Origin: an uncultured Chloroflexia bacterium
Lineage (GTDB): Bacteria; Chloroflexota; Chloroflexia; Thermomicrobiales; JALYUS01
Direction: 5' to 3'
Assembly: GCA_963847195.1 (NCBI GenBank)
Contig: CAWJZC010000014.1
Span: 6,133 to 70,132 of the forward strand
DNA: 64,000 nucleotides
The notes under the pieces are model-generated. The model saw nothing but the letters and a program-made list of their open reading frames with translations. It made no database searches and was not told the DNA's origin. The position numbers were made by a program, and so were the translations under genes. Positions 2,841-39,707 of the stretch are shown here, in pieces (the stretch's first letter is position 1; each line of letters begins with the position of its first letter).

Positions 2841-5281
2841 ATGACGATAGAGCAGGGGGACGAGCGCCTCCTTACGTTGCATGGCGCGACGCCGCCCGAT
2901 GATCGGGCGGGGTATCCACGACCCCTCGCCGGCGGCGAGATGGGCGAATACAGGTACCTGAGCGACCTGTTCATGCAAGCCCCCGCCATGATCGCAGTGT
3001 TGCGCGGGCCGCAGCATGTCTTCGAACTCGCGAATCCCTTGTATATGCGGGCTGTCGGTGCGCGGCGAGAGATCGTCGGGAAGCCCGTGCGCGATGCCCT
3101 CCCGGAGATCCGAGGCCAGGGACTGTTCGAACTGCTCGACGCCGTCTACCGGACCGGCGAACCGTATCTCGGTGATGAGATCCCGGTACACCTGGATCGC
3201 AAGGGGACCGGCCGCCTCGAGGAGGTCTTCTTCAACTTCGCCTATCTGCCCTACAGAGATGCCGCTGGGGGGACGCAAGGCATTTTCGTCCATGCCGTGG
3301 ATGTGACCGGCCAGGTGCGCGCCAGGCGCCGCGTGGAGGAGCAGAATCGGGTCCTGGAGATGATCACGCAGGGGACACCGCTCGTCGATGCGCTGGATTT
3401 CCTGGTGCGGAGCCTGGAACGGCAATCCGCGGACGGGATGCGGGGGTCGATCCTGCTGCTCGATAGCGACCGGGCGCATCTCCGGCATGGCGCGGCGCCG
3501 AGCCTCCCCGATGCGTATAACGCCGCCATCGACGGCATCGCGATCGGGCCGAACGTCGGCTCCTGCGGCACGGCGGCCTATACCAAGGCGCCGGTCATCG
3601 TCGCGGATATCGCCACCGATCCCTTATGGGCGGACTTCAGGGATCTGGCATCCGCGCACGGCCTGCGGTCGTGCTGGTCGACGCCGATCTTCTCCGCGAC
3701 CGGCGACGTGCTCGGCACCTTCGCGATGTACTACGACGAACTGCGGGAACCGAGCGAAGAGGACCGGCAGCTCATCGCGTTCGCCACGCGCACGACCGCG
3801 CTGCTGATCGAGCGCAAGCGGGCCGAAGAAGCGGTCCACGACGAGCGAGCGACGCTTCCGCGCGATGATCGACGCGCTCCCGGCGGCGATCTACACGACC
3901 GACGCCGAAGGGCGGCTCACGCACTTCAACCCGGCCGCCGTCGCGTTCTCCGGGCGCGTGCCGGAGCTGGGCACCGACCATTGGTGTGTCACCTGGAAGC
4001 TCTACTATCCCGATGGGACGCCGATGCCGCACGACGAGTGCCCGATGGCCATCGCGCTCAAGGAGGGCCGCATCATCACCGGCGCGGAAGCGATCGCCGA
4101 GCGGCCCGACGGCACGCGCGTCTGGTTCACCCCCTATCCGACGCCGCTGCGCGATGCCGAGGGCCGGATCGTCGGGGGCATCAACATGCTGGTGGACATC
4201 ACCGAACGCAAGCAGGCGGAGGAGGCGCGCGCCCGGCTCGCCGCCATCGTCGAGTCGTCGGACGACGCCATCATCAGCAAAGACCTGAATGGGGTCATCG
4301 CCAGTTGGAACAAGGGCGCGGAACGGCTCTTCGGGTACACGGCGGCGGAGGCGGTGGGCAGATCGATCATGATGCTCATCCCCCCCGACCGCCACGATGA
4401 GGAGCCCGAGATCCTCGGGCGCATCCGGCGCGGGCGAACGCATCGACCACTATCGAGACGGTGCGACGCCGCAAGGACGGGACGCTGCTCGACATCTCGC
4501 TCACGGTCTCCCCCGTCGTGGATAGCCGGGGAGCGATCGTGGGCGCGTCGAAGATTGCCCGCGATATCACCGAGCGACGGGCGCTGGAGCGGCAGAAGGA
4601 TGAGTTCCTCGGCATCGCCGCCCACGAGCTCAGGACGCCGGTCACGGGCATCAAGGGCTATACCCAACTGCTGGCCCGGCGCCTCCGTCGCGCGGGCGAC
4701 ACCGCCTCGGCCGAGATGCTCGGCAAGCTGGACCGGCAGATCGACCGGCTGACGGGGCTGATCGACGACCTGCTCGACGTCGCGCGCATCGAGGGCGGCG
4801 AGTTGCCCTTCCGGCCCGCCCCATTCGAGCTCAATGCGTTCGTTCGTGAGATCGTCGAGGAGATGCAACAGACGACGGAACGGCACACCATCGCCTGGGA
4901 ACTCGACGAGAGCGTCACCCTCGTCGCGGACCGCGACCGGATCGGGCAGGTGCTGACGAATCTGCTCAGCAACGCGATCAAGTATTCCCCCCAGGCGGAC
5001 CGCGTCGTCGTGCGGACGACGCGCGATGGGGAGAACGTCATCGTCTCCGTCCGAGGATTTCGGCATCGGCATCCCGCGGGAGAAGCAGGCGCACCTCTTC
5101 GAGCGCTTCTATCGCGTGGACGGGGAGAGCCCGCGCGGGTTTTTCGGGGCTGGGGCTGGGGCTCTACATCGCGGCGGAGTTCGTCAAGCGGCACGGCGGG
5201 ACGATCTGGGTGGAGAGCGAGGAGGATGAGGGCACGACGGTCCGCTTCTCCCTGCCGCTCAATGGCCTATCATGGCGATAA
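2841..5281 (+). CDS. Multi-PAS/GAF sensor histidine kinase (at least 5 frame breaks as assembled)
   Basis: ATG at 2841 follows GGAGGTGG. Domains seen: a PAS-like N-terminus, GAF (GSILLLDSDRAHLRHGAAPSLPDAY..GSCGTAAY) and further PAS modules (LFGYTAAEAVGRSI). Kinase motifs: H-box GIAAHELRTPVTGIKGY, N-box LTNLLSNAIKYS, G-boxes DFGIGIP and GLGLYIA. Frame breaks lie near 3840, 4433, 4452, 5050 and 5150. Confidence 0.8.
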
Positions 5282-5305
5282 GGAGCACGAGGCGGGGGGG
5301 GCGGC

Positions 5306-5687
5306 GTGATCCGGGGGACGCAACGCATCCTGGTGGCCGAGGATGACCAGGTCGTGCTCGACGTGTTGCGGCTGATCCTCGAAGAGGAGGGCTACGCGGT
5401 GGAGGCCATCGCGGACGAGGCGACGCTGCGTGCGTTCCCGCACGGCTATCCCGACCTCTTGCTCCTGGACATCTGGATGTCCGGCTGGGACGGTGGCGAC
5501 TCTCTGCCGCGAGTTGAAGCGCGGGGAGAAGACACGCGGGATCCCCATCCTGCTCTGCTCGGCGAATCGAGGCGGGGAGCGCATCGCGCGGGAGGCGGGC
5601 GCCGACGGATTTATCGCCAAGCCGTTTGATATGGACGATCTCCTTGCAGCGGTCGCGCGGCATCTCCGCGCACGAGCCCGATCATGA
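5306..5687 (+). CDS. Response regulator receiver-domain protein (one frame break near 5490)
   Basis: RILVAEDDQVVLDVLRLILEEEGY..DLLLLDIWM, then in another frame LCRELKRGEKTRGIPILLCSA..ADGFIAKPFDMDDLLAAV. It lies directly downstream of the kinase. Confidence 0.8.
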
Positions 5688-9782: not shown

Positions 9783-10626
9783 TCATCCTAAGACATCAGC
9801 GAGGCGGTCGAGTTGGTCGAGGTGCGCGGTGGTCGGGAAGAGGACGAGGTGATCGCAGCCCGCCTCGGCGTAGCCACGGATGAACTGGGCGATCGATTGC
9901 GGCGTGGTCAGCAGCCCGGCGGCGATCCGCTCGGCGAAGGGGCCGGCGAAGGCGTAGTAATCGAGCAGGTAGCGCGTGCCCGCCTCCGCTTCCGTCGCAC
10001 CGAGGGCGTAGTAGCCCATCGCCCAGAGACGTGGACGGCCCGGTCTGCCCGCGTCGGTCCAGGCGGCGCGCGCCTTGTCGGCGGCGGCGGCGAAGGCGCG
10101 GGGTGGGCCGCCGCCGTGGATGTAGCCGTCCGCATAGCGGGCGGCGCGGGCGTACGCGCTATCGCTCAGGCCACCGACGAGTAGTTCCGGCCCGCCTGGC
10201 TGCACGGGGCACGGGCCGACGTGTTTCGTCTTCCCACTGGGTGCGCAGCGCTGCCAGTTGCTCGCTCAGACGGCGACCTCGCGCGTGGTAGTCAACCCCA
10301 GCGGCATCGTAGTCGTCCTTCCGTGCGCCGAGGGCGACGCCGAGCGTCAGGCGGCCATTGGAGAGCGCGTCGATAGTCGCCGCCGCCTTGGCGAGCAGCG
10401 CGTCGTTCTGCACCGGGCCGATCATCACCGTCGTCGCGAGGCGGATGCGCGTCGTCAGTCCGGCGGCCATCGCCAGCGTCGCGAGGGCGTCGTAACTGTT
10501 GTAGACAAGCCGGTCGAAGACGCCGAGGCTGGCGAACGGCCCCCGGTCCGCCCGGCACGCCCACTCGCGGAGCAGATCGCCCGTCGCCCCCTTCAGCGTA
10601 TTCGGCAGCCCAATCCCGACATCCAT
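9783..10626 (-). CDS. LLM-class (luciferase-like) flavin/F420-dependent oxidoreductase (one frame break near 10200)
   Basis: MDVGIGLPNTLKGATGDLLREWA..LATLAMAAGLTTRIRLATTVM..LSNGRLTLGVALG, then in another frame ..GGPELLVGGLSDSAYARAARYADGYI..CDHLVLFP. Confidence 0.8.
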
Positions 10627-12423: not shown

Positions 12424-12605
12424 TCCCCCGCCCCTCCCGCGTCCGCGATCCGCAGCCTGAACGATAGTGCATCCGTATCCGTCCGCGCACATGCCCCGTG
12501 CGACGAGCATCTTCACCTTCATTCGTGACCGCGCTATCGTGCGTCACTTCGCGGATTTGTTCAACACCCTTCCCATCGCGGTCGGTTTGGCGGATGATAC
12601 GGGGT

Positions 12606-12728
12606 GCCCACCCCCTGCCCCCTCCCGACACGGGAGCGGGAACCCATGTCGGGCGCACAGGCTTAGCGGACAAGCCATGGCACGATCGATGAACTCCCCT
12701 CCCGACGCGGGATGGGCAGGGGGTGGGC
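12606..12728. repeat. GC-rich nested inverted repeat in the ligase/RidA divergent intergenic region
   Basis: GCCCACCCCCTGCCC (12606..12620) is the exact reverse complement of GGGCAGGGGGTGGGC (12714..12728). The inner hairpins CTCCCGACACGGGAG and TCCCGACGCGGGA are direct copies of one another. Confidence 0.7.
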
Positions 12729-12745
12729 TCACCGGAGGATCGCCG

Positions 12746-13147
12746 ATGGAAACCTTGCAACCGCCCAACTGGGTGCAACCGCGCGGCTACGCAAATGGCA
12801 TCCTCGCGGAGGGGCGCGTCGTCTTTGTCGCCGGGCAAATCGGCTGGAATGGCGACTGCGTGTTCGAGACGGACGATTTCGCCGCGCAGGTGCGGCAGGC
12901 GCTCGCCAATGTCGTCGCGGTGCTCGCCGAGGCGGGCGGCACTCCAGGCGACATCGCGCGGATGACGTGGTACCTCACCGACAAGCGGGAGTACCGCGCC
13001 GCGCTCAGAGAAGTTGGCCGCGCCTACCGGGACGTGATCGGCGCGCACTACCCGGCGATGACGCTCGTGCAGGTCGCCGCCCTCCTCGAAGACCGCGCCA
13101 AGGTCGAGATCGAAGCGACGGCCGTACTGCCCTCCACAACGCAATAG
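12746..13147 (+). CDS. RidA/YjgF family reactive-intermediate deaminase
   Basis: METLQPPNWVQPRGYANGILAEGRVVFVAGQIGW..ARMTWYLTD..YPAMTLVQVAALLEDRAKVEIEATAVL. GGAGGA precedes the ATG. Confidence 0.9.
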   Translation: METLQPPNWVQPRGYANGILAEGRVVFVAGQIGWNGDCVFETDDFAAQVRQALANVVAVLAEAGGTPGDIARMTWYLTDKREYRAALREVGRAYRDVIGAHYPAMTLVQVAALLEDRAKVEIEATAVLPSTTQ

Positions 13148-13163
13148 GGAAGGGATCAAATCC

Positions 13164-13355
13164 CCAGGGACACCAAGAACACCAAGAAATGCTCGGTATC
13201 CTCAGCGTGTTGGGGTGTGCGCACATGAATATGGCTTTCCCTGGCGGTAGCAGGCAGAGAGCCTGCTTGTCCGTCCTGAGAGGTCAGGCTCACTGCCTGC
13301 TGCCGCCGATGCGATTTCGCCGGAACCCGCTCCGGTCTTCTTGGTGTCCTGGTGG
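13164..13355. repeat. Stuttered-arm palindromic repeat element (copy A3) between the convergent RidA and helicase genes
   Basis: CCAGGGACACCAAGAACACCAAGAA (13164..13188) pairs with GGTCTTCTTGGTGTCCTGGTGG (13334..13355). Inner hairpin AGCAGGCAGAGAGCCTGCT. The right arm abuts the TAA stop at 13356..13358. Confidence 0.7.
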
Positions 13356-16300
13356 TTATCCTTCTGCCGTTGGCACGTTGCCGAAGACGCGTACCTGCTT
13401 GCCGTGCAGCGTCCCCGACCAGAGGGGGACGGTGCAGGTGCGTTCCAGCAGGTGCTTCCAGAGTTGCGCGTGCGCGAATGTCTCCTCATCCGCGCTGAAG
13501 AGGGTGAAGACGGATTCCGAGGCGACGAGGATCATCTTCTGCTTGGCGCGGCTGAGGGCGACGGTCAGGCGGCGGGGATCGAGCAGGAACTTGCCGGACG
13601 CCATCAGGTAGGCGCGGTCGCTCTCCGTCGCGCCGACGAGGATCGCCGTCCGCTCGCCGCCCTGGAAGCGTTCGACGGTATCGACCGATGAGACGACGAT
13701 CGCGCCCGTCCGCTGATCGCGCGTACTAAGGCAGGGGATCTCCTCGCGCAAGGCGGCGCGCTGCGCCCGGTGCGGCACGACGACGCCGAGGCCGTCCACC
13801 GGCCCCAACCCATAGGGCGGCGCGGCGAGCGCTTCGAGGATCGGCGTAATCAGTTGCTGCTCGAAGGGGTTGCGTAACTGGCTCCGCGCCTCATCGTGGA
13901 CGATCACCACCATCGCGTGATCCGGCGCGAGCACGCGGGCGACGAAACCGTCCGGGTCCTCCCACGCCGCGTTCGATGCCAGCAGGGTGTGGTTGTGGGA
14001 GAAGAAGGGGATGCCGTCCTGCGCGTAGATCTCCTCCTTGAGGAAGGTGGCCATATCCGCGTGCAGCCGGAAACTCTCGGTGAACTTAATCATCTCCGGG
14101 ACGTGCGGCAGGAAGGCGAGGAAGAGCGATTCATAGGTGCGATACGCCTTGAACGTCCGGCGCGGCTCGTGCTCCCAGTCGTGTTTGACGATTGGCGGCA
14201 TCTGGCGATGATCGCCGACAATGATTAACTGCCCGTCGCGGTTGAGGAGGAGCGCCGCCATGATCGCCTCGGGCAGGTTCATCTGCGACGCTTCATCGAG
14301 GACGAGGCAGTCGCACCCGCCATGGCCGAGCATCTCCTTGCCCCAGCGATCCTTGACGATGCGGTAGACGCCACCGGGCGTCGCCGCGACGATGCACCAC
14401 GGCTGCGCCTCGATCGCGTCGGCGGCGCGCGGCGTGCCCTTCGGTCGCTCGGTATCGCGCGGCAGCGGGATGACGCCATCGGGGGGCGCCTCGCGCGGCG
14501 TCGTGCGGAAGAGCGGCACATCGAGCAGGCGCGCGTCGAAGTACCGCGCGAAGATCGCCGGGTGGCGTGCCGCGATGTCGCCCAACGTCTCCCGGACGAG
14601 GAGGATATCGCCCAGCAGGACGTTCGTCGCCGCATGGGTCTTGCAGGAGACGAAGGCGCGGAAGGGCCGGGCAGCCGCCATCGCTCCTTGCAGGCGCGCA
14701 AAGAGGGCGAAGGCGGTCGAGTAACTCTTGCCGGTGCCCGGCGGCCCTTGCACGAGCAGTGTCGGCAGATCGCCGCACGCGCCGATGAACCGCCGCTTGC
14801 CCTCCTCAAAGTCGTGGAACGCCCCCGCCGCATGGAGCGCGTCGAGTCCGGCGAGGAAGCGCGCCTGCCCCTCGCGCGCGGCCTCGGGCCAGGTGGCATA
14901 TGCGGCGGCGGGCGCGTCAAGGCGCTCGTAGAGTGTATTCGCCCCGCCCGCGCACAATTCCTGCACGATGCTGGCGCAGAAGGAGCCGTACCAGTCGTTC
15001 GGGTCCGCATCGAGCGTGTAGCATTCACCGTCGCGCAGCGGCCGCTCGAAGGAGGAGAAGGCGAAACCGGGGACGGCACTCTTGGCCCCCGGTCCGCGCA
15101 TCTCAACGACGATGACGTGATCGTTCGCATTGATTTCGACGATTGTCGCGCGGGTGCCGTAGAGCATCTGCTTCGGCGTCGGCGTGAAAGGCGTCCGCTC
15201 CGCCTCCGGCAGCCGCTCATCGACGGTCAGGCGCGGGAAGATGACGACGCTGTCGCCCGCGCGGAGCGAGGTGAGCGCGAGTGCTTCGTCGAGCGAGCAA
15301 TCGAGGCCATCGGCGACCAGTCCGAGCCGGAACCGGAGACCCTGCTGCGACCATTTCGTCTCTTTGCGCTGCTCTTTCGAGAGTTCTGCTCGTGCCGCGC
15401 CGGGGTTGGCGCGGAGGTAGTCCGCCCCGTATCTTGCCGCTTTCTCGGACTGCTCGACGTTCGCGGCATTGGCGGCGGCGACCTCCGGCGATTGCGCGCT
15501 CGCCCGGTAGCGGACGAGCAGCGTCTCACCCGTCAGGGCACGCCGCTCCGGCGGGGCGAGGCGCGCCGCCTTCCACGCGCCGAGCTCGACGTGCCGCTCG
15601 ATCATCACGAACTCGTCGATGGCGTGCGCGCGGGAACGCGCCGTCTCGGAGAATTGCGCGAGGTCCGGCAGGTCGAAGGGGCGTTTCTCGGTCTGTTTGT
15701 TCCCTTTGAACTGCTTGGCGACGTGCTCCATCGCCTCCAACCGACGCCCCTGGAAGCCGCGCAGATCGTCCGTCGTCACGGCGCGGTAGGGAGCGAATTC
15801 ATCCCGCGTGCCCGGCGATGGCGGCGCCAGTTCCCCCCATGCCGCGTAGGCATATTCGAGCGGGATGCGGCTATTGAAGCGCGCCCGCCGTGTATACCAG
15901 CGCGCCGTCTCGTCGTCCGGCTCGAGTTTGCCGCGCGCATCGAAGAGGCGCTCACGGAAGAGGTCGCGGTACGGCGTCCCGGCGTTCCAATCGAAGCGGG
16001 TGATGGACGCGACCGCCTGCAACGACTGGCAGACGATCGGGTAGTTCTTCAACTCGCGAATCTCCCGATCGAGATGCGTGGCAATCGGCGAGTCGAAGGC
16101 GGCGATCTGGGTGACGAAATCGTAGCAGGGCGTCGCCCCGAAGATCGCGCCGAGGTGCCGCGCCAGACCGTCCAGGAGGAGCCGCTGCTCCTGGCTGTCG
16201 TTGAAGATGAGGTGAATTGGCGCGCGCATCGCACCATCGGCGTCCGGCGCGGCGACGGCGACGAGCGCTTGCAGAGTCTCGGCGATCCAGCGGAGGAAGA

Positions 16301-17720
16301 GCGCTTCCTCCTTGGCGGTCGTGTCCGGCGGCCCGTCCGTCAGGTGGATGATGCTCCGGCGCCGCCCGGGGACTTCCTCTCCCCGCTCGCAGGCGACGAC
16401 GAGCGCGCCGATCAGGTAGATGCGGTCGTGCAGGTAATCGTGCTGCGCGTCGATGTAGACGCGGATCAGGTTCGGGTTCTGCGCGGCGTCCGCGTAGGGG
16501 AGCGATCCGTACCCCTTGCTCGGGATGTATCCGAGGGCGGCGAGTGGATCGCCCTGCGAGCGACGATAGCCCCGCGCCCGGTGGATCAATTCGTCCACGC
16601 GCGGGCCGACGGGCCAGGTGGCGGCCAGTCGCGTGGCGAGCGCCTCCTTGCCCGGCGCTGCGACCAGTTCGCTCAGATGGGAGGGTATATCCGCCGCCGC
16701 CGGTTCCTTCACGGTGGCGAGATCGCGGACGGTCGCGATCCCCGCGCCGAGCAGCGCGCTCTTGTCGTTCGGGGTCAGGTGGGGGAGGAGCGAGAGGTCG
16801 TCCCGCTCGACGCTCCGCTTCATGCAGAACTCGTTGTAGAGGCAGCCGTCGCATTTGGCGTTGAGGTGGAAAGGGATGGTATCGAAGGACGCCGCGATGA
16901 CGCGCCGCGCCGTCGAACTCGGCCCGGTGACGAGGTCGTGGACCGAGCGGCGATAGTCGGCGGCGTTCGCGATGATTTCCAGCAGGCCGACATCGCCGCC
17001 GAACGAGTGACGTGCGGCGACCTGTTGTGCGGCTGCCTCAGGCGATGCATCGCCGCCGTCTGCCGGGCCGCGATAGAGCACAGCGATCTCGATCTTCTCG
17101 CAGGCGATGCCATCGGCGGCGAAGAGCGCGTCGAGCATTTCGGCATAGAAGGCGACTTGGAGGCGGTGCTCGACCTTCGCGCTCGTCGAACTTTTCATGT
17201 CGGCGATCATCACGCGCAGGGTGTCGCCCGCGTCCCGCTCCAGGCGGAGGATGTCCACGTCGCCGCGAATCTGCCAGCCATCCAGCGCGACCGTGAGGCG
17301 CGGCTGGAAGAGGACGCGCACGCTCCCGGCGGGGAGCGCGGCTGCCTCGGCGATCACCGCCGCGTTGTTTTCCGGCCGGGCGCCGGAACCGCCGTGCTCC
17401 ACCGCGAAGTCGCGCGTCGCATGGCGCGCGGCGATCACCGCCGTGACATGCTGCTCGAATGTCGCGCCGGAACGGGTGAGCAGCGGGGTGACGGAGACGG
17501 GCGCGACGCTGTACTGGCGCAGGAAGTTCGCGTTCACGCCCCGCTCGTGCAGCCGGAGGCGTAGGTATCGCTCGCATTGTTCGAGGCGGATGAACTGGGA
17601 GATGTCCGTCGGGGAGAGGCGCAACGTCCCATCGGGCCGTTCCGCCGAAAATTCGTCAGTCATCCCACGCTCCATTTCCCCAGAAATCATCTGATAGTCA
17701 TGCCGGAGGCCTGCCTCCAC
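13356..17720 (-). CDS. Giant fusion protein (1454 aa from the GTG at 17720; an ATG at 17663 with a GGAG is an alternative start). It combines a Cas4/RecB-type PD-(D/E)XK Fe-S nuclease, an HhH, an RNase-H-like segment, about 390 unassigned residues and an SF1 Upf1/Dna2-like helicase.
   Basis: Nuclease: C49, GDVD (aa 153-156), IADMK (172-176), QVAFY (188-192), CDGCLYNEFC (290-299). HhH: LTPNDKSALLGAGIATVRDL. RNase-H-like: NLIRVYIDAQHDYLHDRIYLIGALVV. Helicase: Walker A QGPPGTGKS (991-999, nt 14724..14750), Walker B LVLDEASQ (nt 14283..14306), IIVGDHRQMPP, VDTVERFQGGERTAILV, RRLTVALSRAKQKMILV. There is no frame break in 4.3 kb. Confidence 0.85.
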   Translation of the reverse strand: MEAGLRHDYQMISGEMERGMTDEFSAERPDGTLRLSPTDISQFIRLEQCERYLRLRLHERGVNANFLRQYSVAPVSVTPLLTRSGATFEQHVTAVIAARHATRDFAVEHGGSGARPENNAAVIAEAAALPAGSVRVLFQPRLTVALDGWQIRGDVDILRLERDAGDTLRVMIADMKSSTSAKVEHRLQVAFYAEMLDALFAADGIACEKIEIAVLYRGPADGGDASPEAAAQQVAARHSFGGDVGLLEIIANAADYRRSVHDLVTGPSSTARRVIAASFDTIPFHLNAKCDGCLYNEFCMKRSVERDDLSLLPHLTPNDKSALLGAGIATVRDLATVKEPAAADIPSHLSELVAAPGKEALATRLAATWPVGPRVDELIHRARGYRRSQGDPLAALGYIPSKGYGSLPYADAAQNPNLIRVYIDAQHDYLHDRIYLIGALVVACERGEEVPGRRRSIIHLTDGPPDTTAKEEALFLRWIAETLQALVAVAAPDADGAMRAPIHLIFNDSQEQRLLLDGLARHLGAIFGATPCYDFVTQIAAFDSPIATHLDREIRELKNYPIVCQSLQAVASITRFDWNAGTPYRDLFRERLFDARGKLEPDDETARWYTRRARFNSRIPLEYAYAAWGELAPPSPGTRDEFAPYRAVTTDDLRGFQGRRLEAMEHVAKQFKGNKQTEKRPFDLPDLAQFSETARSRAHAIDEFVMIERHVELGAWKAARLAPPERRALTGETLLVRYRASAQSPEVAAANAANVEQSEKAARYGADYLRANPGAARAELSKEQRKETKWSQQGLRFRLGLVADGLDCSLDEALALTSLRAGDSVVIFPRLTVDERLPEAERTPFTPTPKQMLYGTRATIVEINANDHVIVVEMRGPGAKSAVPGFAFSSFERPLRDGECYTLDADPNDWYGSFCASIVQELCAGGANTLYERLDAPAAAYATWPEAAREGQARFLAGLDALHAAGAFHDFEEGKRRFIGACGDLPTLLVQGPPGTGKSYSTAFALFARLQGAMAAARPFRAFVSCKTHAATNVLLGDILLVRETLGDIAARHPAIFARYFDARLLDVPLFRTTPREAPPDGVIPLPRDTERPKGTPRAADAIEAQPWCIVAATPGGVYRIVKDRWGKEMLGHGGCDCLVLDEASQMNLPEAIMAALLLNRDGQLIIVGDHRQMPPIVKHDWEHEPRRTFKAYRTYESLFLAFLPHVPEMIKFTESFRLHADMATFLKEEIYAQDGIPFFSHNHTLLASNAAWEDPDGFVARVLAPDHAMVVIVHDEARSQLRNPFEQQLITPILEALAAPPYGLGPVDGLGVVVPHRAQRAALREEIPCLSTRDQRTGAIVVSSVDTVERFQGGERTAILVGATESDRAYLMASGKFLLDPRRLTVALSRAKQKMILVASESVFTLFSADEETFAHAQLWKHLLERTCTVPLWSGTLHGKQVRVFGNVPTAEG

Positions 17721-17757
17721 TATGACAGGGCTCTACTGTGTTGAACGGTGCGTATCA

Positions 17758-18693
17758 TCAGAACGTGACAGGCTCGTTTCCACTGGTGTGCCGACGGAAG
17801 AGCGTCATGTGGAGAATGACACCCCGATCGACGAGCGCCGCGCCCGCGATGCCGCCCCCGCTGAAGCGAACGTCATGCCCGCTGCCCGGCGACGAGAAGG
17901 TTTCCATCTTCGCCTCGCGGATGCGGCGCGCCATGCGGATGGCGCGCTCCTTCGCAACGGAGGGCGCGGCGGGAGCTCGGAGCGCGTCTAGCGCGGCGGC
18001 CCGTACGAATGTCCGCCAGAGCGCGGCCATCGTCTTGGGCGCGTCGAAAAGTTCGAGGCCGGTGACGCGCCCGCCGATCGCCGTCACCATGCCGACCGCG
18101 CCATCCGGGTAGGGAATGGCGCGCTCGAAGGAGGCGAGATCGTCCCCCCTCCGGTCGTAGAGATCGGCCATCGCCCCGGTCGGCGAGAGGATCGCTTCCG
18201 CGGTCTGTCGCTCCGCGATATTTGCCCAGATTGCGCTCTGATCGCTCCTGTGCGTGCCGCTCTGCCGCAATGACGCAGCGACCTGCATCGCGGTCTCCGC
18301 CCGGAGTGCGGGGTAGAGCGCGTCGTGCGACGCGAAGCCGGCCTGCGGCACGGACCAGCGCGCCTGCTCTACACAGGAGACCGGCAGCACCGTCATCCCC
18401 GGCGGGACGAGTACGGTGCTATTAATGATCCGATTCTGCTTGCCGCCGACCAATTCCTGACCATTAACGATCATGACGGGCAGGGTGCCGGTATTCCGTG
18501 CCATCAGCGTGCCGACGCTCGCACGCTCCATCTCGGCGATGTGTAGCGTCTTCTTCGCCGCCGCATCGGTCAGGAGTGTGTACGCGAGATAGCCGTGACG
18601 CACGCCGCTGAGCGGGAAGATGGTCAGCGCCTCGTGCGTCAGCGCGTCCTCGACCCAGAGTGCGTCGCAGCGTTGTGTGAATAGATTGCTCAT
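17758..18693 (-). CDS. Conserved hypothetical protein (311 aa), first gene of the helicase operon; reminiscent of the DUF6569 / ARPP-1-like family
   Basis: ATG at 18693 after GAGGGGGA. N-terminal half: LTIFPL..YLAYTLLTDAAAKKTLHIAEM..VMIVNGQELVGGKQNRIINSTVLVPPG..LPVSCVEQARW. C-terminal half: GAVGMVTAIGGRVTGLELFDAPKTMAALW. No catalytic motif recognised. The family call is memory only. The gene ends 37 nt before the helicase ORF. Confidence 0.6.
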   Translation of the reverse strand: MSNLFTQRCDALWVEDALTHEALTIFPLSGVRHGYLAYTLLTDAAAKKTLHIAEMERASVGTLMARNTGTLPVMIVNGQELVGGKQNRIINSTVLVPPGMTVLPVSCVEQARWSVPQAGFASHDALYPALRAETAMQVAASLRQSGTHRSDQSAIWANIAERQTAEAILSPTGAMADLYDRRGDDLASFERAIPYPDGAVGMVTAIGGRVTGLELFDAPKTMAALWRTFVRAAALDALRAPAAPSVAKERAIRMARRIREAKMETFSSPGSGHDVRFSGGGIAGAALVDRGVILHMTLFRRHTSGNEPVTF

Positions 18694-18839
18694 GGCTTCC
18701 CCCTCGGTATCTGCCGGTGCGCCGCTTATTCGCGCTGTATCCCACAGTAACAGCACTCACCGGACGAGGATGCGTCCACTTTCATTCCTCTGGTACACTG
18801 AGCTACGCGAATGCGCTGACACCGGAAGGACGATGCAAG

Positions 18840-19886
18840 ATGGGCGTGGAGGGCGAACGTCCGGAGGTGACGGCGGAGCAGCGCTCGCTGGCGATGCTCG
18901 TCGCGCTTCATCTGCACCCGACCGGGCTGCGGCGGGCCGAACTGATCGGCGAGGTGCGGCGTCTCCTCGCCGAGCCGGAACTCTATCTCGGCCAGCGCGA
19001 CGCGGCGGGGGAGACGCGCGAGCGACCGCTGGAGGAGCGCACGATCCATCGCGATCTCGTCCGCGTGCGCGACTGGCTCGGCACGAAACCGTGGCCCGAC
19101 ATCGCCGTGACGGATGAGCACGCCGGGCGGGAGCGGCGGTACCGTCTGGCGCAGGGGCTTGTGCCCGGCTTCGTCCTCACCGACGGCGACCGCGACGCGT
19201 TGCGCGAGATTTTCCAGCACCTCTGCGGCGCGAAGGCGGGGACGCGGTCGATTGTCCTGCCTTTCGTCCAAAAGGTCGCGGGCGAAATGCTCGCCGTGGA
19301 CACCGGAGATGTCCTGCCGCCCGATGTGATGGGGTATCTGACCCAGGAGCAACGGGACGCGCTCGCCGTCATCGTGCGCGCCAAGCAGCGGCAGCAGGGG
19401 ATCGCCTTCGCCTATACGGCGGGGAGCGGCACGAAGCGATACGTCGCGTGGCCGATTGAGATTTCATGGTTCGGGACGCGCGTCTACATTGCCGCGCGCA
19501 AGGACGATCAGCAGTTCCGCGTCTTCCGGCTTGATCGCTTCCTGCCTCGACCGGATCAATCCGCCCGGCATCTCCTCGTCCAGCCGACCGGGAGGAGCGC
19601 GCCGTTCGGACTCAGCCTCCCGTCACGCCCGTTCCGGTTGCGCGTGCGCGGCAATCTCGTGCCCTTCTTCCGGGACACCGCCGTCTTCTTTGATCAAGCA
19701 GTCGCGCCCGAGGAGGACGGATCGCTGATCGTCACGGGGACGTATCGCTCCGACGTTCTCCTCGCGAACAACGTACTCCGGTACGGCGCCGCCGTCGAGT
19801 TGTTGGAACCCAGGCGGGTCCGTACACTGATTACGGAAGAGGTCGCGGCTCTCACGCGCCTCTATGCCGGGGAACCGGCCGGATAG
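18840..19886 (+). CDS. wHTH-WYL-type transcriptional regulator (BrxR/CapW-like architecture)
   Basis: N-terminal wHTH-like LAMLVALHLHPTGLRRAELIGEV..TIHRDLVRVRDWLG. WYL-like core IAFAYTAGSGTKRYVAWPIEISWFGTRVYIAARKDDQQFRVFRLDRF (about nt 19386..19559). C-terminal extension ..VLRYGAAVELLEPRRVR. It is divergent from the helicase operon. Confidence 0.75.
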   Translation: MGVEGERPEVTAEQRSLAMLVALHLHPTGLRRAELIGEVRRLLAEPELYLGQRDAAGETRERPLEERTIHRDLVRVRDWLGTKPWPDIAVTDEHAGRERRYRLAQGLVPGFVLTDGDRDALREIFQHLCGAKAGTRSIVLPFVQKVAGEMLAVDTGDVLPPDVMGYLTQEQRDALAVIVRAKQRQQGIAFAYTAGSGTKRYVAWPIEISWFGTRVYIAARKDDQQFRVFRLDRFLPRPDQSARHLLVQPTGRSAPFGLSLPSRPFRLRVRGNLVPFFRDTAVFFDQAVAPEEDGSLIVTGTYRSDVLLANNVLRYGAAVELLEPRRVRTLITEEVAALTRLYAGEPAG

Positions 19887-38647: not shown

Positions 38648-38800
38648 ATGCAGGGTGTCTCACGCACGATGTTCCGCAGCCTGATGGGCGTCGCCCTCGC
38701 CGCGCTCGCGACCTGGTTGGCGAACTATCTCACCGAGCGCATCTTCGGCCCGGAAGAGCTGGAAGCGGGTGACGCGCACACGTCCCAGCACGCAGCCTGA
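38648..38800 (+). CDS. Possible small membrane protein (50 aa)
   Basis: MQGVSRTMFRSLMGVALAALATWLANYL.. after GGAGGGA. It is short and no family was recognised. Confidence 0.3.
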   Translation: MQGVSRTMFRSLMGVALAALATWLANYLTERIFGPEELEAGDAHTSQHAA

Positions 38801-38810
38801 CGCACGCGAG

Positions 38811-39707
38811 ATGCGGCTGCTCCTCATCATGAATCCCGCGGCGGGGCGGCGTTCGCCGGATCACGTCGAGGAGGCAGTCCGCGATTCCTTCGCGCGGCGC
38901 GGCATCACCGCGACGATTGATGTCCGCCTTCCCGCGCACGAGCGACGATGCGACGGCCACCGCGCGCGACGCGGCGGGGCGGTACACGATCGTCGCGGCG
39001 GTCGGCGGCGACGGGACGGTGCGCGATGTCGCGGCCGGGCTGGCCGGATCGTCTACACCGCTGGCGATCATCCCCAATGGCACCGCCAATGTCCTCGCCT
39101 CGGACCTCGGCATCCCGATGCGCCCAGCCGACGCGGCGAACTTGCTGCGTGCGGGGGCGTATAGCGCCCCGCTCGATCTTGGCAGCGTGAACGGCAAGCC
39201 CTTCGTGCTCAATGTCGGCGCGGGCTACGCGGCGCGCCTGATCCTCGGCACGCCCCATTCATGGAAGCGGCGGATCGGTTTCTTCGCCTACTTGCCCGCC
39301 GCCGTCCGCGCGACATTCGCCAACGACCGCGCGCGGACGACGATCACCGTGGACGGGATGCAGCTACGAGGGGCGGGTGCAGATGATCTTCGTCGCCAAT
39401 AGCGGCGGCATCGGCGGGCGGGCGATCCAGATCGCCGAGGGCGTGCGCTACGACGACGGCCTCTTCACCGTCGCCGCCTTCGCGCCGCGCTCGCCGCTCG
39501 GCACGCTGATCGCCTTCGTGCAGATCGCCATGCGGCGCTGGTCCCGTATTCCCGGCGCGCGGTACTGGGAGGGGGCGGAAATCACCGTGGCCTGCGATCC
39601 GCCGCTGCCCGATGCAGGTCGATGGCGACGGGATGGGCAAGACGCCGCTTACGATCACAATGCGCCCCGCCGCCCTGCGCGTGATCGTGCCGGAGCCGTC
39701 CGCATGA
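38811..39707 (+). CDS. Diacylglycerol-kinase-family lipid kinase (YegS/BmrU-like), at least 3 frame breaks
   Basis: MRLLLIMNPAAGRR.., TIVAAVGGDGTVRDVAAGL..LAIIPNGTANVLA.., ..MQVDGDGMGKTPLTITMRPAALRVIV. The stop is at 39705..39707. Confidence 0.75.

Follow-up and report, generated by a model that had tools for sequence, protein, structure and literature searches.

A nuclease-helicase gene in a Chloroflexia genome

We analysed a 64,000-nucleotide stretch of DNA from an uncultured Chloroflexia bacterium (contig CAWJZC010000014.1, positions 6,133 to 70,132; hereafter the window), in which one gene on the reverse strand encodes a protein of 1454 amino acids (aa) with a nuclease at its N-terminal end and a helicase at its C-terminal end. 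A first-pass annotation, made from the sequence alone, had pointed to this protein as an unusual domain fusion. We find that it represents a branch of a class of Dna2-like nuclease-helicases that is known and catalogued but has hardly been studied by experiment; it is no new kind of system. The open reading frame (ORF) and the parts into which we divide its product are as follows.

13356..17720 (-): the whole ORF, 1454 aa, GTG start (homologues, public protein P0001, motif check)
16806..17633 (-): Cas4/EXO5/AddB-type PD-(D/E)XK nuclease with 'iron-staple' cysteines, aa ~30-305 (Pfam, Foldseek, conservation)
16686..16799 (-): helix-hairpin-helix (HhH; LLGAGIATVRDLA), aa ~308-345 (TIGR03491, hhalign, predicted helices)
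15921..16478 (-): RNase-H-fold domain, placed like the RNase_H_2 domain (3'-5' exonuclease type) in TM0106 proteins, aa ~415-600 (AlphaFold2 (AF2), Foldseek, conservation)
15531..15920 (-): conserved helical region, WYTxRARFxSxIPLEYAYAAW, aa ~601-730 (AF2, conservation)
14997..15530 (-): six-stranded SH3-like β-barrel into which a helical hairpin is inserted, aa ~731-908 (AF2, confidence above 90)
14769..14996 (-): helical stalk running into helicase domain 1A, aa ~909-984 (AF2)
13506..14768 (-): superfamily 1B (SF1B; Upf1/Dna2-like) helicase with Walker A K998, DEAS 1142-1145 and motifs III, V and VI, aa 985-1405 (Pfam, PDB)
13359..13505 (-): conserved C-terminal tail with W1421, K1422, C1429, W1434 and W1446-G-N, aa 1406-1454 (alignment)

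The intact 1454-codon frame is a real gene. Stop codons occur in the window at 0.017 per codon, which gives a probability of ~1e-11 for 1454 stop-free codons by chance. The GC content by codon position (0.70/0.48/0.86) is like that of other genes in this 67% GC window, the GC content of the gene as a whole is that of the remaining window, and there are hundreds of full-length homologues. An identical public protein (P0001, 1435 aa) from a Thermomicrobiales metagenome-assembled genome is named 'AAA domain-containing protein' and is annotated from M20, corresponding to a coding sequence at 13356-17663 with an ATG at 17663; M20 is likely to be the true start rather than the GTG. The motifs that had been read from the translation are all found where they were placed, namely GDVD (153-156), IADMK (172-176), QVAFY (188-192), the cysteines C49 and C290-x2-C293-x5-C299, the HhH stretch (311-335), YIDAQHD (422-428), GPPGTGKS (992-999), DEAS (1142-1145), GDHRQMPP (1169-1176), FQGGER (1352-1357) and ALSRAK (1388-1393). 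An antisense ORF of 1080 aa (14322-17564, (+)) lies inside the gene; its GC content by codon position (0.86/0.50/0.70) mirrors that of the real frame, and it is a typical high-GC shadow ORF, not a gene.

Conserved nuclease and helicase ends

Sequence profiles assign just PDDEXK_1 at aa 122-299 and the SF1B helicase at aa 985-1405, plus a short TIGR03491 match. For each part of the protein we give its structure as predicted in two overlapping fragments (aa 1-612 and aa 590-1000, from a 119-sequence alignment) and its conservation, which was counted in 73 diverse bacterial family members, in an 81-sequence set that adds haloarchaea, and in 30 haloarchaeal homologues. The AF2 model of aa 1-612 has a mean predicted local distance difference test (pLDDT) score of 84.5 and a predicted template modelling score of 0.82, with most of the nuclease domain above a pLDDT of 90.

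Both profile and structure searches uphold the PD-(D/E)XK fold that had been proposed for the N-terminal region. Pfam PDDEXK_1 matches with 34.4 bits against a cut-off of 22 bits (E 3e-8), and a Foldseek search of the PDB with the first domain returns EXO5 (3e-5), Cas4 (SSO0001 and the I-C Cas4), AdnA/AdnB, AddB and ACE1. The predicted catalytic residues of the nuclease are D156, D174-x-K176 and Q188...Y192, and D156, D174, K176, Q188 and Y192 are invariant in all 73 bacterial sequences. C290, C293 and C299 are likewise invariant (73/73), C49 is present in all 71 sequences that cover its position, and 27 of the 30 haloarchaeal sequences have all four cysteines. C49, C290, C293 and C299 may thus ligate a 4Fe-4S cluster, in agreement with the Fe-S-type cysteines noted at first pass.

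At the other end of the protein, the SF1 Upf1/Dna2-like helicase core is confirmed by Pfam AAA_12 (63.4 bits) and AAA_11 (42.6 bits), which each exceed the cut-off of 27 bits, and by a PDB sequence search, which matched the helicase alone, with Dna2 as the best match (3e-22), followed by Upf1/Nam7 (8e-18 to ~1e-17), IGHMBP2 and Sen1. K998, D1142, E1143 and Q1173 are each present in 72 of the 73 bacterial sequences and R1357 in 71. Because the active-site and motif residues of both ends are conserved in the bacterial set, we predict that both nuclease and helicase are active. Family membership suggests that the helicase would translocate with 5'-3' polarity.

The HhH that links the nuclease to the rest of the protein also stands, as a TIGR03491 (TM0106) match and as part of an hhalign match to the actinobacterial TM0106-helicase family, and AF2 predicts helices at 317-325 and 331-335. 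The TIGR03491 match (34.1 bits, E 1.5e-8) covers aa 288-347, equivalent to model positions 193-252, and this partial match falls below the curated cut-off of 97.45 bits, which applies to the whole 462-position model.

A constrained RNase-H-fold domain

The block at aa ~418-590 that had been described as RNase-H-like has the predicted topology β1-β2-β3-αA-β4-αB, which was judged to agree with the expected order β1-β2-β3-αA-β4-αB-β5-αC. The pLDDT is 80-95 for aa 419-529, and the C-terminal part (aa 530-612) is of low confidence. Foldseek matches of this second domain in the PDB are RNase HI (4e-3), RNase T, the C-terminal half of UvrC and the PIWI domain of Argonaute. In a viral library, giant-virus proteins match across both N-terminal domains (E 1e-8 to 6e-7, 578-762 aligned columns), and one of them is named 'RNase_H superfamily protein'.

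Attempts to assign the block at the sequence level were all negative or insignificant. A PDB profile search with the block gave no significant sequence match, Pfam PF13482 (RNase_H_2) was not found in 16 family members at E<=10, and hhalign gave no significant alignment with P0351, a 1144-aa metagenomic protein. The hhalign comparison with actinobacterial RNase_H_2 regions is weak and insignificant (E 0.11); in it, E471 and H503 fall opposite E382 and H404-407, which are invariant in genuine RNase_H_2 domains, and this pairing is consistent with common descent and does not prove it. The protein P0351 itself carries RNase_H_2 (PF13482, aa 315-502) and an SF1B helicase with no Pfam PDDEXK match, and exonuclease-helicase fusions of this kind occur in several forms.

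The first-pass annotation had suggested that this domain may be catalytically dead, as the usual acidic DxE motif reads YIDAQHD. One half of this idea holds, in that the canonical DxE is lost: ExoI reads D424-A-Q426, where position 424 is Asp in 71 of the 73 bacterial sequences and position 426 is Gln in 59, His in eight and Glu in two, and in the haloarchaeal clade position 424 is Asn or His (N/HxQ). The ExoII equivalent, E511, is present in just 21 of the 73 bacterial sequences and is invariant in the 30 haloarchaeal ones. Thus, the canonical DEDD set (ExoI DxE with acidic ExoII and ExoIII residues) is not found, and only the putative ExoIII residue D594 is conserved (73/73 bacterial, 77/81 overall). 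Other residues, however, do not fit the picture of a decaying domain. E471, H503, R521, W578 and F593 are strictly invariant in the 81 bacterial and archaeal sequences and D428 is present in 79; since D428, E471, H503, R521 and D594 are all at least 95% conserved, the domain is under constraint and not decaying. It is thus no canonical DEDD exonuclease, yet it is strongly constrained. The window protein also keeps D424, D508, E511 and D534.

The region between the RNase-H fold and the helicase

The ~390 residues that had been left unassigned are a real gap in annotation, as aa 350-985 have no match in Pfam, NCBIfam or PDB sequence searches. Fragment aa 590-1000 is nevertheless confidently folded in the prediction (pLDDT 86.2). 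A Foldseek search of the PDB with this fragment returned nothing significant, the best match being to SH3-like ribosomal barrels at E 0.025 with IGHMBP2 at E 2, and we dropped the assignment of a known fold.

We could still divide the region into a helical region, a barrel and a stalk. The helical region (aa ~601-730) has invariant P620 and R727 and an E708 that is at least 93% conserved, and it is common to the short-form and haloarchaeal homologues. The barrel is partly deleted in short-form homologues, with gaps at 834-848. By analogy with Upf1/Dna2-type helicases, the barrel and stalk may correspond to their 1B/stalk element.

A divergent branch of the TM0106-helicase fusions

At least 120 clusters of full-length homologues (1430-1600 aa, 55-79% identity) were found, mostly in Chloroflexota, with Thermomicrobiales, Ktedonobacterales and Sphaerobacter among them. 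Searching exhaustively with aa 1-985, we obtained 873 clusters at 50% identity (E<=1e-3), some of them of a short form (1260-1370 aa) that has aa 33-745 in common with the window protein. A genome scan located full-length copies in Gemmataceae (55% identity), Abditibacteriaceae, Chloroflexus and Acidobacteriota, and tblastn found at least eight plasmid copies, one on a Chlorohelix plasmid and seven on haloarchaeal plasmids. A Halalkalicoccus protein is also 1454 aa long and aligns end to end with the window protein (N-terminal part 5e-41, helicase 3e-55).

Of the loci that had been retrieved by their helicase similarity (L034-L081), ~25 form a sister family. Its members are 1115-1300 aa long and come mostly from Actinobacteria, with a further three from Planctomycetota, Deltaproteobacteria and an unclassified bacterium. 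They carry PDDEXK_1, RNase_H_2 (PF13482, 3e-21) and AAA_11/12, their N-terminal 490 residues match TIGR03491 end to end and above its cut-off, and they retain the full DxE...E...D...YNxxD set. In the Mycolicibacterium sediminis protein (L044, 1180 aa), for example, TIGR03491 scores 176.8 bits against the cut-off of 97.45 over model positions 5-462. By hhalign, aa 28-340 of the window protein are homologous to these actinobacterial TM0106-helicase fusions (probability 97.5%, E 8e-12).

The resemblance of the N-terminal parts to TM0106-type nucleases, claimed at first pass, is therefore upheld in part. The order of the TM0106 module, a Cas4-like nuclease followed by an HhH and an RNase_H_2-type domain, is matched according to AF2, Foldseek and hhalign, whereas the TIGR03491 cut-off is not reached and PF13482 is not detected. 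The present family is a divergent branch of the catalogued TM0106-helicase fusions that lies below the recognition of the curated models. The claim that the fusion is unusual does not hold, because the architecture is common in Actinobacteria, was catalogued for COG2251 (TM0106 module plus helicase) as early as 2014 (PMC3985635), and the family of the window protein is itself large. The annotation had also allowed that the architecture might prove to be a common and already characterised family; it is common, but it is not characterised.

In addition to the cellular proteins, three giant-virus proteins in BFVD, A0A3G4ZWN9 (Faunusvirus), A0A3G5AGZ9 (Sylvanvirus) and A0A5J6VIM9 (Megaviridae), match the Cas4-like nuclease and the RNase-H domain, and the gut phage record MT835580 encodes a match to both N-terminal domains at 38667-39638. 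The TM0106-type two-domain module is therefore also viral.

Gene neighbourhood

Two genes adjoin the start of the nuclease-helicase gene.

17758..18756 (-): ARPP-1 gene, upstream and co-directional (Pfam PF20208, 2.4e-75)
18717..19886 (+): WYL-WCX transcription regulator, divergent (Pfam WYL and WCX, PADLOC WYL)

The pairing of ARPP with WYL is known from the literature as a two-gene unit, and Iyer et al. 2022 predicted that it serves as a conflict module or as one that processes sugar moieties (PMC9503650); ARPP has no PADLOC model. Co-transcription of ARPP-1 and the helicase in this genome is possible because the gap between them is 37-95 bp and no terminator was found; a promoter and terminator scan of 13000-19200 gave counts not above those in shuffled sequence. 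ARPP lies beside the helicase just in an 88%-identical relative, where the genes are syntenic, and is absent from the 18 other helicase loci. Since it accompanies the helicase solely in this closest relative, we treat ARPP-1/WYL as a neighbour and not as a partner, and the two genes are probably a module separate from the helicase. A three-gene system of ARPP-1, WYL and helicase was accordingly rejected (0/18 other loci).

An all-against-all comparison of the ORFs of 19 loci revealed no conserved neighbour, and a conserved operon partner was thus rejected as well. Of ten flanking proteins compared with domain profiles, all are of metabolic or surface type except for one with an AAA_5 (dynein-related) domain of the McrB kind, and most neighbourhoods of the homologues likewise consist of metabolic or housekeeping genes. 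At a minority of loci the homologue adjoins an integrase/Prim-Pol element and a UvrD-PDDEXK protein, and one homologue adjoins an Mrr-like restriction endonuclease on a haloarchaeal plasmid. At another locus (L085, 11401-16572), a 64%-identical homologue lies tail to tail with a 1723-aa DUF4011/AAA_11/AAA_12/MTES_1575 protein, which matches PADLOC PDC-S37 (E 2e-270) and Hhe (E 9e-130), so that two giant SF1 helicase-nucleases are convergent.

Comparison with known systems

To our knowledge, Bad, an enzyme from bacteria that resembles Dna2, is the only characterised bacterial or archaeal Dna2-type nuclease-helicase fusion, and the others are almost unstudied. By analogy of architecture, it is also the closest characterised analogue of the window protein. 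Bad of Geobacillus stearothermophilus has an Fe-S cluster and is a monomer that acts as a 5'-3' single-stranded DNA (ssDNA) translocase and helicase and as an ssDNA endonuclease, which cuts near the junctions of ssDNA and double-stranded DNA (Wilkinson et al. 2020, PMC7430649). According to its published description, Bad shares with the window protein an N-terminal Fe-S 'iron-staple' RecB-family nuclease, a large central region and a C-terminal SF1B helicase, and it too is encoded by a stand-alone gene that is sporadic in Bacteria and Archaea and annotated merely as an AAA ATPase. It is shorter (1245 aa against 1454 aa), and its authors found no fold for the central domain (PMC7430649), whereas here an HhH, an RNase-H fold, helices, a barrel and a stalk can be distinguished. 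Searches seeded with a Firmicutes (L018) and a haloarchaeal (L086) protein of our set returned no Geobacillus or methanogen proteins.

The actinobacterial fusions (COG2251, for example L044) have the same order of Cas4-like Fe-S nuclease, HhH, RNase-H-fold domain and Upf1-like helicase, with homologous N-terminal ~310 residues and helicases that are 23-27% identical. However, they pass TIGR03491 and PF13482 and keep the DxE, whereas the window protein reaches 34 bits, lacks a PF13482 match and reads DxQ, and it is ~270 aa longer with the extra helical and barrel region. Stand-alone TM0106 proteins (TIGR03491) and the giant-virus proteins share the module of Cas4-like nuclease, HhH and RNase_H_2-type domain but have no helicase, and their sequence similarity is limited to the Cys-cluster/HhH stretch.

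In eukaryotic Dna2 (PDB 5EAN/5EAW/5EAX), a PD-(D/E)XK nuclease with a four-Cys Fe-S cluster also lies N-terminal to an SF1B helicase, and a barrel and stalk sit between nuclease and motor, an arrangement that the window protein may share. Dna2 has neither HhH nor RNase-H-fold domain and no counterpart for the central ~650 residues, and the two nucleases are alike just at the fold level. In AddAB, AdnAB and RecBCD, too, an SF1 motor is joined to an Fe-S or RecB-type nuclease, in line with the Foldseek matches to AdnA/B and AddB. These enzymes are heterodimers or heterotrimers with UvrD-like SF1A (3'-5') motors, and RecBCD has the SF1B (5'-3') subunit RecD in addition, while the window protein is a single chain with a Upf1-like SF1B motor and an N-terminal nuclease. 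RecC and AddB offer a precedent for degenerate domains that are retained as DNA-guiding modules.

Among the PADLOC and NCBIfam models, the helicase core (aa 988-1419) scores best against the defence helicases MkoA (1e-28), DpdJ, PLuB_AAA, ProA and Hhe, with NCBIfam scores far below the cut-offs (99 vs 999, 38 vs 1500, 23 vs 2000). Membership of Mokosh, Dpd, PLuB, ProA and Hhe was rejected, as the core alone matched, below cut-off, and there are no conserved partner genes.

Proposed activity and alternatives

In eukaryotes, nuclease-helicase fusions of the Dna2 type have a central part in the processing of DNA ends and flaps. On balance, the account we lean towards for the window protein is a single-polypeptide Dna2/Bad-like nuclease-helicase that processes DNA ends, flaps or forks in genome maintenance. 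The C-terminal SF1B motor would bind ssDNA and move 5'-3' with ATP, and the β-barrel and stalk would sit on it in the manner of domain 1B in helicases of the Upf1/Dna2 type. The Cas4/EXO5-type nuclease at the N-terminus, stabilised by a predicted 4Fe-4S cluster, would cleave ssDNA fed or tracked by the motor. Nuclease, HhH and RNase-H-fold domain would together form a divergent TM0106-type module, of which the latter two may handle the duplex or the other strand. The RNase-H-fold domain, probably of 3'-5' exonuclease descent but without the DxE, would most likely guide or hold the second strand or a 3' end, and it may keep a residual or altered hydrolytic activity.

Of this account, the analysis shows the identity of the domains, the conserved catalytic residues of nuclease and helicase and the homology to the TM0106-helicase family; we infer the polarity, the Fe-S cluster, the DNA substrate, the coupling of the two activities and the role in genome maintenance. 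The protein is 55-65% identical over 1450 aa across Chloroflexota classes. A housekeeping-type role is suggested by this high conservation together with the window-like GC content, the mostly metabolic neighbours, the lack of a conserved partner and the synteny in the 88%-identical relative. Several points weigh against the account as a whole. The family is known from sequence and predicted structure, and the likeness to Bad is drawn from a published description rather than from sequence. The exonuclease descent of the RNase-H-fold domain is suggested by fold and position, and no significant RNase_H_2 sequence match was obtained. Upf1-like helicases act on RNA too, and some homologues lie on haloarchaeal plasmids or beside defence-type genes, which fits defence equally well.

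We think it somewhat unlikely that the protein is instead a stand-alone effector against phages or plasmids, a single-gene SF1-helicase/nuclease defence protein like Hhe whose motor loads on foreign free ends or ssDNA and whose Fe-S nuclease shreds them. The best model scores of the helicase core point that way, although the matches cover the generic core only and stay far below the curated cut-offs. So do the integrase/Prim-Pol and UvrD-PDDEXK, PDC-S37/Hhe-like, Mrr-like and McrB-kind AAA_5 neighbours, which are seen at a minority of loci among neighbourhoods that are mostly metabolic or housekeeping and have no conserved partner gene. The window gene follows an ARPP-WYL conflict-system module, but ARPP is missing from the 18 other loci. 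The plasmid copies, as well as the 52-55% identical copies in Planctomycetota and Abditibacteriota, which imply horizontal transfer, would suit a defence gene, for which the sequence conservation is unusually high.

Less expected still is an end-resection machine with two nucleases, which would be analogous to AddAB, RecBCD or AdnAB but made of one chain; in it, an active RNase-H site (D428/E471/H503/D594) and the Fe-S nuclease would degrade the two strands of a DNA end with opposite polarity as the motor drives the enzyme along. This we consider quite unlikely. Five polar residues of the domain are at least 95% conserved and three of them strictly invariant in the 81 sequences, a typical pattern for residues that form an active site or bind a ligand, E471 and H503 pair with RNase_H_2 residues in the weak alignment (E 0.11), the sister family keeps its full catalytic set, and the window protein retains the four additional acidic residues listed above. 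In DEDD exonucleases, however, mutation of the ExoI or ExoII acidic residues normally abolishes activity, and here the ExoI Glu is Gln in most bacterial members, haloarchaea have Asn or His in place of the ExoI Asp, and the ExoII Glu is kept by a minority of the bacterial sequences. An RNA-directed enzyme, that is, a Upf1-like RNA helicase with nucleases in RNA surveillance or at R-loops, is very improbable. The closest solved helicases include Upf1, IGHMBP2 and Sen1, and RNase HI is among the Foldseek matches, but Dna2 matches the helicase best, nucleases of the Cas4/EXO5/AddB family and HhH motifs are modules specific for DNA, and the sole characterised analogue, Bad, acts on DNA.

The advance is incremental and holds no surprise, because the architecture was already catalogued (COG2251). 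What it adds is a fold and a set of testable conserved residues for the 'unknown central domain' of such enzymes. In this large and strongly conserved family, the central region can now be divided into HhH, RNase-H-fold domain with a rewired conserved site, helical region, and barrel with stalk, which suggests a hypothesis for the unexplained central domain of Bad-like enzymes and offers D174 (nuclease), K998 (motor) and D428/E471/H503/D594 (RNase-H-fold domain) as targets for mutation. A bolder idea, which is a long shot, is that the Chloroflexota/haloarchaeal family, and possibly Bad, carries a cryptic rewired RNase-H-fold domain in which the set D428-E471-H503-R521-D594 replaces the DEDD site and gives rise to new catalysis or to a RecC-like recognition channel; the enzyme would then be a one-chain equivalent of AddAB/RecBCD and the main DNA-end resection machine in these lineages.

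Frame breaks and the downstream intergenic region

The first-pass annotation had contrasted the unbroken gene with frame-broken neighbours. Such breaks exist, at least for a luciferase-like monooxygenase gene that is split into 10159-10626 and 9783-10205 at ~10180, and a truncated HisKA/HATPase histidine-kinase gene lies at 4461-5309. In the 88%-identical relative (L082, 7001-11304), the genes that are split are those of the helicase orthologue, the WYL protein and a tRNA synthetase. Because the breaks hit different genes in the relative, they look like random indel errors of long-read assemblies, which suggests assembly indels rather than true pseudogenes. The breaks elsewhere are thus no pointer to a selective preservation of the nuclease-helicase.

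The ~830 bp (12523-13355) that separate the AMP-binding gene from the 3' end of the nuclease-helicase gene contain no confident gene. An ORF at 12467-13147 (+), with a GC content of 0.79 at third codon positions, may be a degraded or frameshifted gene.

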